Notes under the pieces: generated by a model
Told to the model about the DNA's origin: nothing
The model's input: the letters and a program-made list of their open reading frames with translations, nothing else
Databases searched by the model: none
From: an uncultured Clostridia bacterium
GTDB lineage: Bacteria; Bacillota; Clostridia; Christensenellales; Borkfalkiaceae
Direction: 5' to 3'
DNA length: 64,000 nt
NCBI GenBank assembly: GCA_904502225.1
Contig: CAJGDO010000002.1
Location: forward strand, 1,425 to 65,424
Made by a program: the position numbers and the translations under genes
Shown: one piece after another, positions 9,970 through 60,106 of the stretch
How positions within the stretch are numbered: position 1 is the stretch's first letter
Layout: the number at the start of each line of letters is the position of its first letter

Positions 9970-10054
9970 AAAACGCTCCTTTTCTCTTTATATTTGCATT
10001 TTACTATAATATTTTTATTATTGCAAGCGTTTTTTATCATATTTGTAAAATAAA

Positions 10055-10061
10055 TGTCGAA
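10055..10061 (+). promoter_or_regulatory. Spo0A box (TGTCGAA) upstream of spo0A
   Basis: This is an exact 0A-box heptamer 86 nt upstream of the spo0A start. It sits in the loop of a 10-bp inverted repeat (TTGTAAAATA / TATTTTACAA). Confidence 0.6.
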
Positions 10062-10111
10062 TATTTTACAAAATTACATTATTAGTGTTTTTCTAATGTT
10101 TTTCACTGTTT

Positions 10112-10118
10112 TTCGACA
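10112..10118 (-). promoter_or_regulatory. Spo0A box (TGTCGAA on the minus strand) upstream of spo0A
   Basis: The + strand reads TTCGACA, the exact reverse complement of the 0A box. It lies 143 nt upstream of the spo0A start. Confidence 0.55.
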
Positions 10119-10265
10119 TTGTTTTTGGGCATAATAAATTTTGTACAAAATTCGTGCGTTTGTTTACAAAGTTCGGGGAAAGGGCAAAAAAATAAAATTG
10201 CAAAAAGAAAACGCCTTGCGTTTAGGGCGTTCCTATAAGGGAATTTTAATTTAATACAAAAGTGT

Positions 10266-10311
10266 AGCCCACTATACTTCGCTTTAAGGCGAAATATGGT
10301 GGGCTTTTCTT
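10266..10311 (+). terminator. Nested hairpin plus T-run; terminator-like element with a second copy at 60044..60082
   Basis: The outer stem AGCCCAC/GTGGGCT encloses TATACTTCGC-tttaag-GCGAA and is followed by TTTTCTTT. It shares the core CACTATACTTCGC..GCGAA with the second copy. Confidence 0.5.
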
Positions 10312-10364
10312 TATCCACAAAATCTTAAAATAAAAAAGTTGTATTTTTAGCCGTGTGTCTAAAA

Positions 10365-10581
10365 GTGATATTGTTTACGCAGTAAACAGTTTAGCCGAGC
10401 GAAGCGAACGCCAACTGCGTAAGCAGTTATATTTTGGCTATCGCCAAAGTTATATTAAATAAATCCTTAACTCGCCGTAAGGCGAATATAACTGCCGTAA
10501 GGCAATCTCACTCGTCATTAGACGAATATCACAAATCCGTAAGGATTTATTTAATTGCCGAATCCCTTGTAGGGACTCGGC
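10365..10581 (+). repeat. Hairpin-array element, copy A: 8 or more mini-hairpins separated by oriented AT-rich 8-9 nt linkers
   Basis: Linkers are GTGATATT 10365-72, AGTTATATT 10425-33 and 10448-56, AATATAACT 10485-93, AATCTCACT 10504-12 and AATATCAC 10525-32. Hairpins are at 10373-87, 10413-28, 10434-47, 10473-84, 10494-503, 10513-24, 10533-48 and 10557-81. Four of them have GTAA loops on the + strand. Confidence 0.65.
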
Positions 10582-10609
10582 TTAGCAAGGCGTTTGTTGT
10601 TTAGTTTTT

Positions 10610-26546: not shown

Positions 26547-26939
26547 AGAAAAAGTATAACACATTGGTAAAAATTTTTCAATTTTTTTTAACCTTTTTAA
26601 TAATTTTTATAGTTATCAAACAAAATTAAAAGTTATAACTTTTTTATAAACGTTTTATCTACATATCTTTTCATTAAGGATTATATAACGAAAAAACACT
26701 TATCAACTTTTCAACGCCATACTACTATACCTAATACCTTTTTAAATTTAAAAAATAAATAAAAAAAACAATACAAAGGAAATTAAAAAATTAAAAATTT
26801 TTGTTTTTTCTAAAAAAGGAAAATAGCAAATTTATCATTAGAAAAAGCCTTGATTTTTTTTCCCTTTTATTATATAATAAAAGGGTATAATTTAAATAAC
26901 GATTTTTTTCTTAAAATAAAGGATAAACGGAGGGGAAAA

Positions 26940-28258: not shown

Positions 28259-28591
28259 ATGAAAAAAGAGTTTAGGTTAAAAAAAGAAAAAGATTTCAAT
28301 TTAGTATTTAATAAAGGGAAAAGACTGTTTAGTTCTGACCTAACACTAATTTATTTTGAACAAAAAGAATTGAAAGTTGGCTTCGCCGTGGGTAAGAAAC
28401 ACGGCGGAAGCGTAAAAAGGAATAGAATTAAACGTCTTTTACGGGAATCTTTTAGAAGTTTTAGTTTGGATTTAAGACAAAACTTCTTTTTTGTTTTTAT
28501 ACCGAAAGTAAAAGAAGAATATACGCTTGAAAGTTTTAAAAAGAATATGGAGTATCTTTTTATTAAGGGTGGATTTATAGAAAAATGTTAA
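28259..28591 (+). CDS. rnpA: Ribonuclease P protein component
   Basis: A basic 110-aa product immediately follows rpmH and carries the RNR-type motif (KKHGGSVKRNRIKRLLRE). Confidence 0.9.
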   Translation: MKKEFRLKKEKDFNLVFNKGKRLFSSDLTLIYFEQKELKVGFAVGKKHGGSVKRNRIKRLLRESFRSFSLDLRQNFFFVFIPKVKEEYTLESFKKNMEYLFIKGGFIEKC

Positions 28592-32531: not shown

Positions 32532-32556
32532 GAAAATATAAAAACACTCACGAAGT

Positions 32557-32767
32557 AGTGCGTCAGTAATAGGGATTATTACTGACGCACTAGTTATATT
32601 TGCCTATCGGCAAGTTATATTGCTATCGCAGTGTTATTTTGCTACGCAAAGTTTTATTTTCCCTTTCGGGAAAGTTGTGGCAAATATAATATAACTTTGA
32701 CTTAATGTCAAAATATAACTTTTAGATTTTCTAAAAATATAACTGTTTGCAACGCAAACAATATCAC
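32557..32767 (-). repeat. Hairpin-array element, copy B (inverted paralogue of copy A)
   Basis: The minus strand reads GTGATATT-gtttgcgttgcaaac-AGTTATAT-hp-AGTTATAT-hp-AGTTATATTATATT...hp-AAAATAAAA-hp-AAAATAACA-hp-AATATAACT-hp-AATATAA, followed by a 15-bp-stem hairpin (32557-32591). On the minus strand the loops read GATA, GATA and GAAA. Confidence 0.65.
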
Positions 32768-32881
32768 TTTACTTAAAAATAACTTTATGATATAATTAAC
32801 TTATGAGTGAAAACGCTTAAAGAGAAAAAATAATTTAAAAAACTCGACTATTATTAAAGCCGAGTTTTAATTTTTTTTATA

Positions 32882-40130: not shown

Positions 40131-40181
40131 AAAATTGAAGAGCCTTGCAAGGTTTTGCCTTGCAAGGCTCACGTTCTTTTT

Positions 40182-40523
40182 CAGTCGGTCTATAAGCCGA
40201 GTTCTGTCGTGTACGGTCATTTATCTACGAATAACGTTGCCGTTATCCCCCAGCGATATTTGTTAAACTGTTTTGGCGAAACTCCCTAATAAAACAGTTT
40301 GTCAATCTTGCGTCGGGTGGGGTTTACATTGCACCTTGTGTCGCCACTCGGTCGGTGTGCTCTTACCACGCCTTTTCACCATTACCTAAAAATAGGCAGT
40401 TGTTTTCTGTTGCACTTTCCTTAAAGTCACCTTCACCGGGATTTCTCCGGCACCCTGTTTCTAAAACGCTCGGACTTTCCTCATTGACAGGCTCTCCCTG
40501 TCCCCGCGACCGTATAACCAACT
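40182..40523 (-). ncRNA. rnpB: RNase P RNA (ribozyme component)
   Basis: The minus strand carries the universal GAGGAAAGTCCG motif near the 5' end and ACAGAACTCGGCTTATAG near the 3' end. The termini AGTTGGTTATA / TATAGACCGACT can pair as P1. A terminator hairpin follows at 40141..40168. The ends are approximate (+/-10 nt). Confidence 0.9.
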
Positions 40524-40967
40524 CAAAAAGTAAAAGTATTATATATTAATTTATCAGTTTTGTCAACTAAAAATAAAAAAGACCGAGTTAATCCATTATT
40601 TTACTAATTTTTATTAGGTAATTATTACTTAATTAAAATTCTAATAACTTCTTTAAGCCAGTCTTTTTCGTTTTTTCAAGGTTTAGTTTTAAGATTTTTT
40701 ATAAATCGTCAGCATCTTGAACAGGTTTTTCATACTTATCAAAAGCGTTTACACCTGTATATGAACCTTGCGTATCAAAATTGCTTATAAATGATTTCTT
40801 ACTTGCAATTTTTCGCATCGTTTTGCTTCTTGCTATTCGTTTTACTTTTCTTATTATCTCTCATAATCTTCCCCCTTGATAATATGTTGTGTAGAAAACA
40901 AAAAGATATACATTTAAAAACAAAAAAACGACAAAAATTTTGCCGTTTTATTTTTTTGTTTAATAAA

Positions 40968-59814: not shown

Positions 59815-59901
59815 GCCGCTGTGGTGAAATTGGCAGACGCGCTGGACTCAAAATCCAGTGGTAGCGATACCGTGCCGGTTCAAGTCCGGCCAGCGGCACC
59901 A
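59815..59901 (+). tRNA. tRNA-Leu (anticodon CAA), CCA encoded
   Basis: I folded the cloverleaf by hand. The acceptor is GCCGCTG/CAGCGGC, the anticodon stem is CTGGA/TCCAG with loop CTCAAAA, the variable arm is long, and the T arm is CCGG-TTCAAGT-CCGG followed by CCA. Confidence 0.95.
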
Positions 59902-60043
59902 AAACAGTATAATCCGAACCAAATACTTGTAACAAGTGAATGGTTCGGATTTGCTTTTACTCTTTAATCATTATAACGGTAGGAATTTACGTTCTTATTG
60001 TTTTTTATTTAGTCATAAATTATTGATTTTCATAAAAAAGCAT

Positions 60044-60082
60044 AGCACACTATACTTCGCAAAGCGAAGAAGTGTGCTTTTA
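60044..60082 (+). terminator. Nested hairpin plus T-run; second copy of the element at 10266
   Basis: The outer stem AGCACAC/GTGTGCT encloses TATACTTCGC-aaa-GCGAAGAA and is followed by TTTTAATT. It lies between tRNA-Leu and the integrase gene. Confidence 0.5.
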
Positions 60083-60106
60083 ATTATTTAAAAAGGAGAT
60101 GTTATT

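Follow-up and report, generated by a model that had tools for sequence, protein, structure and literature searches.

Two hairpin arrays lie in a 64,000-nucleotide stretch of contig CAJGDO010000002.1 from an uncultured Clostridia bacterium of the Borkfalkiaceae (hereafter the window), one upstream of spo0A (copy A) and one between trxA and trkA (copy B). These arrays are probably copies of a modular, dispersed DNA repeat of gut Clostridia, which resembles miniature inverted-repeat transposable elements (MITEs) and targets intrinsic transcription terminators, rather than an RNA specific to trxA. The repeat is apparently mobile, either now or recently. As judged from aligned sequences, near-identical copies are found at multiple unrelated loci, also in different genera, close relatives lack it at the orthologous sites, and it lies in a fixed orientation just after, or within the loop of, the intrinsic terminator of an upstream gene or transfer RNA (tRNA) gene. 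By the same comparisons, one clade of PF05635 genes is found almost always 36-56 bp past its right arm, with a promoter of its own.

The preliminary description of the window had reported two homologous copies in opposite orientation, and both points were borne out. The diagnostic pattern GTGATATTGTTTRCNNNGYAAACAGTT matches the window exactly twice, at 10365-10391 (+) and 32741-32767 (-), against none expected from shuffled sequences, and AGTTATAT occurs 11 times against 2.55 expected, with eight of these occurrences inside the two copies. In a global alignment of the two arrays, 127 of 163 aligned positions are identical; the alignment score of 141.5 lies ~7.7 standard deviations above that of shuffles (83.6 +/- 7.5). 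The membership of both copies in a conserved family, in which linkers, hairpin number and stem complementarity are retained while stem sequences vary, is supported. The window holds just these two copies of the array. Both fold far better than shuffles, and do so on either strand (z -7.8 to -9.3). A paired A-T to G-C change had been described in the first hairpin of the minus-strand reading and is indeed present in this terminal hairpin, which reads GTTTAC/GTAAAC in copy A and GTTTGC/GCAAAC in copy B. In contrast, the 26628-26643 palindrome, proposed as a relative, belongs to an ordinary AT-rich divergent spacer, with no hairpin array around it and no match to the family profile.

A pattern taken from the right arm, scanned against GTDB genomes at one genome per species, found at least 120 loci, nearly all of them in metagenome-assembled genomes (MAGs) of gut or rumen Clostridia. 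Among the matches listed, the hosts are Acutalibacteraceae, Oscillospiraceae, Ruminococcus, Christensenellaceae and others; loci from other genomes or metagenomes used in the comparisons carry L-numbers (for example, L018 and L119). The full array is a dyad of ~175 nt. Its consensus order is a leading hairpin (hairpin0), AGTTATAT, three to four hairpins with GTKATAT, a centre of the form GTT-n-GGCRAATATAATATMAC, and three hairpins with ATATMAC, the number of left-arm hairpins ranging from 1 to 4 across the family. A phased motif of 7-9 nt, AGTGATATT/AATATCACT, is repeated at intervals of 21-24 bp and faces opposite ways in the two arms. The architecture first described for copy B, with three hairpins per arm plus an apical one, stands for the terminal hairpin and the arrays but gives way to four hairpins on the left, an unpaired centre and three on the right. 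The supposed apical hairpin, cccGAAAggg, is the fourth left-arm hairpin of copy B and not the centre of symmetry.

Pairing within the array extends beyond the local hairpins. RNAalifold pairs the array start with the centre over a long range; of 81 sequences, 61 have C-G and 18 have U-A. The pairing that the centre can form with the initial 10 nt of the left arm has three co-varying states. This 5' segment is complementary to its local partner in the first hairpin as well, and complementarity among all three segments is found in 79 of 116 elements. In copy B, GGCAAATATAA in the centre is complementary to TTATATTTGCC at the left-arm start. A 'ladder' RNA, in which left linkers would pair with right linkers through stacked four-way junctions, was rejected: its nested pairs are complementary in only 78, 66, 40 and 15% of elements, with no position-specific association, though the minimum-energy fold of copy B does show a ladder. 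Inspection of the centre, which holds an invariant TATAAT, for divergent promoters revealed no -35 element at 16-18 bp on either strand. A possible sister family is seen at L064, where ~40-130 nt past the array a terminator is followed by hairpins with AATGATG-type linkers instead of GTGATAT (…TTTTTTC AATGATGT TTGCCCTTGGCAA ATGATGA CGCTAACGC TAATGATGT TTCCTTCGGAAAT).

The family includes Gut-1, a motif reported from human-gut metagenomes as 'certainly' an RNA, of unknown function (Weinberg et al., 2010; PMC2864571), and held in Rfam under an sRNA label as a model of only three hairpins of one arm (RF01706). Gut-1 is defined by GUGAAAU-like linkers and by AU...GU ends that lengthen each stem (RF01706). 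In the cmscan alignments, both window copies present three consecutive hairpins with the linkers GUGAUAU, GUGAGAU and GUUAUAU. The gathering score of the covariance model (50 bits) is reached in copy A (10481-10557, minus strand, 51.9 bits) and in 11 other arrays, many relatives scoring 52-61 bits; copy B falls under it (32591-32662, plus strand, 33.4 bits, E 9e-5). A family profile (nhmmer) matches copy B over its full length (32592-32768, E 2.4e-33) and copy A with E 1e-13. Because both arms of L006 reach the Gut-1 gathering score, on opposite strands, the Rfam motif is one arm of the dyad. The published seed alignment with its flanks (PMC2864571) has the same order of parts, namely a stop codon or tRNA, a strong hairpin, the array, the centre and the inverted array, and its member BAAZ01025322 is locus L166, in which a tRNA gene, an array and a PF05635 gene follow one another. 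Gut-1 as described here thus differs from its Rfam entry in being a two-armed ~175-nt array, set in larger composites and behaving as a dispersed DNA repeat, and in being assigned to Clostridia MAGs of human and ruminant guts.

The locus of copy B was compared with relatives whose TrxA is 86-97% identical (L121-L130); exact-protein look-ups for TrxA and Spo0A gave no match, and near relatives were used in their place. These relatives carry an intact trxA terminator, AAAAAACACTCAC-loop-GTGAGTGTTTT, at the same position and no element. The window retains only AAAAACACTCAC-GAAG, joined straight to hairpin0, and the 3' half of the terminator is gone. Because the terminator of the relatives is intact and element-free while the window keeps only its 5' half, copy B is, on this comparison, a lineage-specific arrival at the trxA terminator loop, accompanied by loss of the terminator 3' half. 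The strong terminal hairpin reported for copy B is its hairpin0, with a stem of 16 bp (32556-32571/32577-32592). It is not an intrinsic terminator, as AGTTATAT rather than a T-run comes next, and the same hairpin precedes arrays at the unrelated loci L027, L029, L032, L057, L079 and L119. Copy B is 88-91% identical to elements at non-orthologous loci of other genera, in genomes whose coding DNA is ~70% identical. No open reading frame (ORF) of at least 60 aa lies inside its array. The first terminator with a U-tract after trxA in the window is the hairpin at 32837-32870, which resembles, when compared by eye, the one after the intact PF05635 gene in L029/L119 (L079 was also viewed).

A cleaner junction is found at copy A. 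In relatives with 87% identical Spo0A (L135/L136), the region upstream of spo0A holds a plain intact terminator, AACGCCTTGC-TTTTT-GCAAGGCGTTTTTTT, whereas 365 nt separate these halves in the window (10595-10585 and 10219-10202, minus strand). The inverted-repeat ends align over 29 nt, with a score that no shuffle equalled, and a possible 3-bp duplication, TAA, is present at both borders. On these alignments, copy A inserted cleanly, as 365 bp, into a terminator loop, and its ends are imperfect terminal inverted repeats. The predicted RNA fold pairs the terminator halves around the whole insert (dG -147.7). No ORF of at least 80 aa lies wholly inside it. The stretch 10224-10371 is 75-92% identical to array-adjacent modules in L092, L032, L097, L108, L087, L059, L118, L039 and L027.

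The 3' module of the copy A insert contains a hairpin of a second repeat family, termed type-4, with the terminator-like form AAAAGC[AC]CAC...GTG[TG]GCT...TTTT, usually after TTGTGGATAA; in the window it is found at 10262-10319 (-) and at ~60000-60090 (-). More than 10 other loci have this hairpin beside an array, facing either way; its stand-alone relatives include ones in L029, L027 and L014 and one that follows a gene near window position 60055. TTGTGGATAA, located at 10311-10319, reads on the other strand as TTATCCACA, a perfect DnaA-box consensus. The composite insert lies between spo0A and the preceding gene, just upstream of a region (9970-10200, minus strand) that is conserved with relatives and holds repeated, 0A-box-like TGTCGAA/TTCGACA motifs.

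Dispersal and preference for terminators recur across the family. L018 and L099 each contain two near-identical copies with unrelated flanks, approximately one extra copy is found per 70 kb of fetched flanks, the array density is ~1 per 30-70 kb, and the estimated copy number is tens per genome. Split terminators enclose inserts of 306-384 nt at 14 loci including copy A; the layout at the 13 others is a perfect A-tract and stem, the insert, and then the other stem half with a T-tract. Of 96 elements, 22 are flanked by exactly complementary stretches of 10 nt or more, whereas the control gives 3 of 96. Nine of the 14 complete inserts, copy A among them, are bounded by imperfect terminal inverted repeats that are significant (11-36 aligned nt, p <=0.015 against shuffles). 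Candidate 3-4-bp duplications are seen at copy A, L047, L060, L048, L118 and L035, and are absent or ambiguous elsewhere.

The arrays keep a fixed orientation relative to what lies upstream, ~90% of all upstream features being co-oriented with the Gut-1 strand. All 33 adjacent tRNA genes are upstream and co-oriented with the Gut-1 strand, 27 of them at 30-39 nt, the length of one hairpin. Downstream genes are mixed in orientation, 31 of 74 being convergent. A strong hairpin is found within 50 nt upstream of 100 of 108 arrays; in 52 of the 108, and in 28 of 30 beside tRNA genes, hairpin0 carries a T-run and forms a complete terminator, and some arrays abut the -35 of the next gene. With about half of the arrays placed after a complete terminator and before the next promoter, these are probably little-transcribed DNA.

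Other forms of mobile DNA were sought around the arrays. Widely separated arms that could be the ends of a larger transposon gave no convincing case, L001 having a lone right arm. The integrase signature of a tRNA 3'-end duplication past the arrays yielded only weak matches at the level of the T-loop. Short T-arm-like pieces (GGTTCGAA flanked by a stem) do occur within 80 nt past the arrays of L023, L052, L068, L006 and L120, and L023 and L052 have pseudo-tRNA 3' ends (…CCCTTTCCA), with a further terminator after each. Insertion could have displaced tRNA 3' ends and left these pieces as relics; their similarity to the upstream tRNA is weak (best 13/14 nt). BLAST found no match to the element in phage and plasmid collections, and 10 pattern matches in viral contigs proved to be low-complexity sequence or unrelated repeats. 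One IMG/VR contig (L142) holds an unrelated, operator-like phage array of five tandem AATATAATATCACTAATTAGTGATAAATT with the palindromic core TCACTAATTAGTGA, which shares only AATATAATATCAC. A further module, TAACTCTTGC..GCTTTTATGCTATAAT..GGCGGTGA..ATG, follows the right arm in L008, L015, L022, L051 (two copies), L066, L082, L086, L095 and L103, where it drives small genes; the L051 product that was read begins like a signal peptide. Array, promoter and small gene appear to have been duplicated together.

The gene linked to the array encodes a PF05635 (23S_rRNA_IVP) protein. PF05635 proteins are four-helix bundles, kin of those encoded in 23S rRNA intervening sequences and of Avd of diversity-generating retroelements. 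Seven of the loci selected by their array carry such a gene, each starting 36-56 nt past the right arm on the same strand. The association was also examined without selection for arrays: among 80 metagenome loci fetched by protein alone, 76 had sufficient upstream sequence, and an array lies directly upstream in 75 of them, the exception having a truncated array. The metagenome set comprises at least 14 distinct gene variants, and its common human-gut locus is one of the original Gut-1 seed sequences. In L029, L119, L014 and L004, the intact gene has the same promoter and encodes 116-118 aa starting MSESILREK (PF05635 E 5.7e-28). Immediately past copy B, the window holds a remnant of this gene, consisting of the promoter and the first five codons and 88-89% similar to L029/L119 up to 32829. 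L079 appears to be the L029/L119 locus without the gene, which would be gene presence and absence at one locus. Arrays without a PF05635 gene are the majority (>100 of ~125, both window copies included). No split terminator surrounds the PF05635-carrying copies at the seven genome loci and five metagenome loci inspected.

The stems and loops of the family bear on whether the array acts as RNA or as DNA. Across 620 hairpins, the stems contain 3249 Watson-Crick pairs, 29 G.T pairs, 22 A.C pairs and 57 other mismatches; 97% of pairs are Watson-Crick, and wobble stays below 1% without strand bias. Typical RNA helices do not show such rare wobble with no strand preference. The pattern agrees either with palindromes whose perfection is maintained in DNA or with copies that descend recently from perfect masters. 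Left-arm loops are of the T..C type and right-arm loops of the G..A type, a mirrored arrangement that holds on either strand. Triloops make up 52% of right-arm loops, and C-GNA-G, the commonest class, is a loop known from DNA mini-hairpins of exceptional stability. The preliminary description had read GNRA loops on the minus strand of copy B and had chosen the strand by them. GNRA holds for three of the seven array loops of copy B and not for the rest, and because loop types are mirrored between the arms, the strand call fails. The Gut-1 strand, minus in copy A and plus in copy B, is opposite to the GNRA-chosen one in both copies. Both loops and wobble pairs were rejected as a means of assigning a strand, as both are symmetric. 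Likewise, the paired stem change is genuine as a change of pair but not as RNA covariation in place. The variation between copies A and B is that of dispersed repeats at unrelated loci, not of evolution in place under RNA constraint; close relatives lack the element at both loci.

How such a repeat might spread can be outlined from its parts. Gene-less copies would be non-autonomous or decayed derivatives, moved or copied by an enzyme. The array would be a cis-acting module that displays the phased motif between hairpin-prone palindromes. Because the palindromes carry loops (C-GNA-G and GNRA) of the kind that stabilises single-stranded DNA hairpins, the arrangement of motif and hairpin suggests recognition on DNA by a protein, for which the PF05635 protein is a candidate. 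With local folding of every module, the split stem would re-form around an insert in a terminator loop, and insertion would be nearly harmless to the host. A more specific proposal, improbable as it stands and offered tentatively, is that the array serves as the cis site for hairpin-loop invaders of a hitherto unrecognised class. The only product encoded by complete members would be the PF05635 four-helix-bundle protein; by binding the phased ATATCAC-hairpin units, it would enlist a host activity that copies the element into extruded or single-stranded terminator loops. If this were true, PF05635 proteins would gain a function and rRNA intervening sequences an origin.

Among the other explanations, a structured noncoding RNA or 3'-untranslated-region (3'-UTR) domain is unlikely but keeps some weight. 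The array would be transcribed from the upstream gene and serve as a protein sponge, as a stabiliser against 3' exonucleases or as a processed 3'-UTR sRNA. Gut-1 was itself proposed as an RNA on covariation grounds, its strand is the sense strand of the upstream gene in ~90% of cases, both window copies included, and no complete terminator intervenes between trxA and copy B. In copies inside split terminators, copy A for instance, the array is upstream of the U-tract and must be transcribed, with a very stable predicted fold (z -11.9 for copy A); it is this necessary transcription, together with the strict sense orientation, that lends the RNA explanation its weight. It is opposed by the scarcity of wobble pairs without strand bias, by a dyad symmetry of architecture and loops that makes the other strand equally RNA-like (in L006, Gut-1 is matched on both), by the many arrays that follow T-run terminators or abut the next -35 and are probably little transcribed, and by the lack, on inspection of the sequence, of a convincing promoter at either end or at the centre. 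Moreover, close relatives lack the element at the orthologous positions, so conserved regulation of trxA or spo0A is not its role.

A stationary DNA control region, in which phased sites upstream of promoters (above all that of PF05635) are bound by a regulator or nucleoid protein and have spread only by duplication of the gene cassette, would account for a motif spacing of 21-24 bp (two helical turns), for right arms lying directly against the -35 both of the PF05635 gene and of genes in a small-lipoprotein family, and for the almost constant presence of an array upstream of one PF05635 clade. We consider it quite improbable: most arrays lack a PF05635 gene, many face a convergent gene, and copy A occupies a terminator loop with no dependent promoter anywhere near, has terminal inverted repeats and is matched by an empty site in relatives. 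Recognition of sites in duplex DNA also leaves variable yet perfectly palindromic spacers unexplained. Repeats of the type of repetitive extragenic palindromes (REPs), bacterial interspersed mosaic elements (BIMEs) and REPINs, in which a REP-associated tyrosine transposase (RAYT; HUH/Y1 class) recognises the hairpins as single-stranded DNA and copies them, share units made of a hairpin and a conserved flanking motif in inverted arrangement, an extragenic location at gene 3' ends and loops of the DNA-type GNA form; REPs themselves are transposase targets and substrates (PMC1525189; PMC3333891). A REP is defined as one imperfect palindrome of ~20-35 nt with a GTAG-type tetranucleotide, present in >100 copies per genome and linked to RAYT. 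The arrays depart from this in having seven to eight different hairpins of 10-17 nt per element and not one repeated palindrome, the motif GTKATAT/ATATMAC and no GTAG-type 5' tetranucleotide, tens of copies by estimate rather than hundreds, and a tight partner gene, PF05635, that is not an HUH enzyme (no search for RAYT genes was made), which leaves a REP-type origin very improbable. Chance clustering of AT-rich palindromes, for which the 30-40% G+C of the window might speak, can be dismissed, given that no match to the shared pattern is expected, fold z is about -8 and at least 120 homologous loci exist in other genomes. The original argument for a functional structured element over chance palindromes accordingly holds as regards chance, but not as regards a structured RNA on the GNRA strand.

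Several observations weigh against a terminator-targeting mobile repeat. The stems covary widely, with double changes in 26 of 35 RNAalifold pairs, and the Rfam curators read them as RNA. Orientation tracks the upstream transcription unit (~90%) far more than it tracks replication, an explanation rejected with a GC-skew proxy of 61:38, and this could reflect selection at the RNA level. Candidate duplications (TAA, TTT, ATT, GTTC and TCTC) occur at some inserts and not at others. The right border of copy B is not a clean junction, and as the 3' half of the trxA terminator is missing, replacement or deletion must also have taken place. The PF05635 count is inflated by 62 redundant loci of one common human-gut species. 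No transposase, other mobilising enzyme or autonomous partner with matching ends was found in ~0.9 Mb of flanks, in which ORFs were not systematically annotated. Finally, the element is absent from the phage, plasmid and viral-contig collections, which gave no sign of a route of horizontal transfer.

Comparison with known systems reveals resemblances to several classes of mobile DNA. Using the criteria for MITEs exemplified by Correia and Nezha elements (Delihas, 2011; PMC3184786), the composites are similar in their lack of coding capacity, size of 300-385 bp, stable predicted fold and many copies, as well as in terminal inverted repeats and in empty versus filled sites in related genomes. 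They differ in the dyad array of seven to eight distinct mini-palindromes with a phased motif, in a target that is the loop of, or the position just after, an intrinsic terminator, in their fixed orientation and in inconsistent target duplication. They also differ in having no known parent insertion sequence, the only linked gene, PF05635, not being a known transposase. BOX elements vary in module number. The arrays likewise are modular intergenic repeats of Firmicutes with a variable number of hairpins, and their hairpin0 often mimics a terminator. PMC3184786, citing Croucher (2011), describes BOX as a tandem array of repeat modules and SPRITE as a terminator-like element in Streptococcus pneumoniae. 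The arrays have no sequence relation to these and consist of ~20-nt hairpin-plus-linker units as opposed to boxes of 45-60 nt, and links to terminator loops and PF05635 are undescribed for BOX and SPRITE.

Insertion into hairpins has precedents of two kinds. IS1397 inserts into the loop of a palindromic unit with a 3-4-bp duplication. Such insertion sequences resemble the repeat as mobile DNA that chooses extragenic hairpin-forming palindromes, and a duplication of this size would match the candidate duplications reported here. IS1397, ISKpn1 and IS621 all insert into REP elements (PMC1525189). In contrast to the gene-less repeat and its Clostridial intrinsic terminators, however, they are full insertion sequences with transposases and proteobacterial REP targets. 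The 23S rRNA intervening sequences are AT-rich, sporadic inserts that replace the apical loop of a hairpin and are associated with a PF05635 protein. The apical-loop position is shared by copy A and 13 further loci, and the PF05635 partner is shared as well. The host hairpin differs, being a terminator rather than helix 25 or 45 of 23S rRNA, from which intervening sequences are excised by RNase III, and no copy in rDNA was present among the loci seen here.

Table 1. Parts of the two repeat copies and of their flanks in the window.
Feature	Position	Strand	Details
Surviving 5' half of trxA intrinsic terminator	32540..32555	+	AAAAACACTCAC and loop remnant GAAG; copy B joined directly
Copy B hairpin0	32556..32592	+	16-bp stem TAGTGCGTCAGTAATA/TATTACTGACGCACTA, loop GGGAT, no U-tract (sequence, fold)
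Copy B left arm	32592..32673	+	Four hairpins: 32600-32613, 32621-32630, 32638-32650, 32658-32673
Copy B left-arm linkers			AGTTATAT, GTTATAT, GTGTTAT, GTTTTAT
Copy B centre	32674..32695	+	Unpaired, GTTGTGGCAAATATAATATAAC
Copy B right arm	32696..32767	+	Three hairpins: 32696-32712, 32720-32736, 32744-32760; linkers ATATAAC, ATATAAC, ATATCAC
Decayed cassette	32768..32829	+	-35 TTTACT (32768-32773), -10 TATAAT (32791-32796), ATG 32803, MSENA, stop 32818-32820
Terminator-like hairpin	32837..32870		AAAACTCG...CGAGTTTT, A-run before, T-run after (sequence)
Copy A composite insert	10220..10584	-	365 nt: TAA, hairpin0, array, spacer, type-4 hairpin module, right terminal inverted repeat
5' half of split host terminator	10585..10595	-	AAACGCCTTGC, after 625-aa gene (stop codon ends 10610)
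3' half of split host terminator	10202..10219	-	GCAAGGCGTTTTCTTTTT, with U-tract
Copy A hairpin0	10557..10581	-	GCCGAGTCCC-TACAA-GGGATTCGGC; doubles as left terminal inverted repeat
Copy A array	10365..10556	-	Left arm of four hairpins, linkers AATTAAAT, GTGATAT, GTGAGAT, GTTATAT; centre 10471-10449
Copy A right arm		-	Extra 25-nt segment (10413-10389); ends ATATCAC at 10371-10365
Type-4 terminator-like hairpin	10262..10315	-	AAAAGCCCACC...GTGGGCT, TTGTGGATAA before; part of composite 3' module
Right terminal inverted repeat of copy A	10225..10256	-	Reverse complement GTTCCTATAAGGGAATTTTAATTTAATA resembles hairpin0 and following sequence
One motif-hairpin unit			AATATCAC and C-GAA-G hairpin

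Outside the two copies, the window may be close to a replication origin. The cumulative GC skew of positions 1-32000 has its minimum at ~16-18 kb, where gene orientation flips. TTATCCACA has 34 matches with at most one mismatch against 15.6 expected. A yidC-jag cluster lies at 28.3-31.2 kb, upstream of trxA, and an unannotated 110-aa ORF (28259-28591) before it occupies the usual position of rnpA. The order yidC-jag-trxA, together with Spo0A, marks the source of the window as a sporulating, Clostridium-like organism. A class A RNase P RNA (40177-40525, minus strand, 249 bits) and a tRNA gene (59815-59898, plus strand) are both ordinary.

Gut-1, listed in Rfam since 2010 without organism or function, gains from these comparisons its hosts, which are gut Clostridia of the Oscillospirales and Christensenellales types, and a complete anatomy. 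Its 'sRNA' label is called into question, since its genomic behaviour is that of a mobile or dispersed repeat; the 'covariation' of perfect palindromes can mislead the discovery of RNA motifs. To our knowledge, no gene-less bacterial repeat has previously been reported to insert into terminator loops. Such repeats could break metagenome assemblies, and they alter the 3' ends of genes such as trxA. The near-obligate pairing of the array with one PF05635 clade, in turn, provides a handle on a widespread protein family of unknown function.

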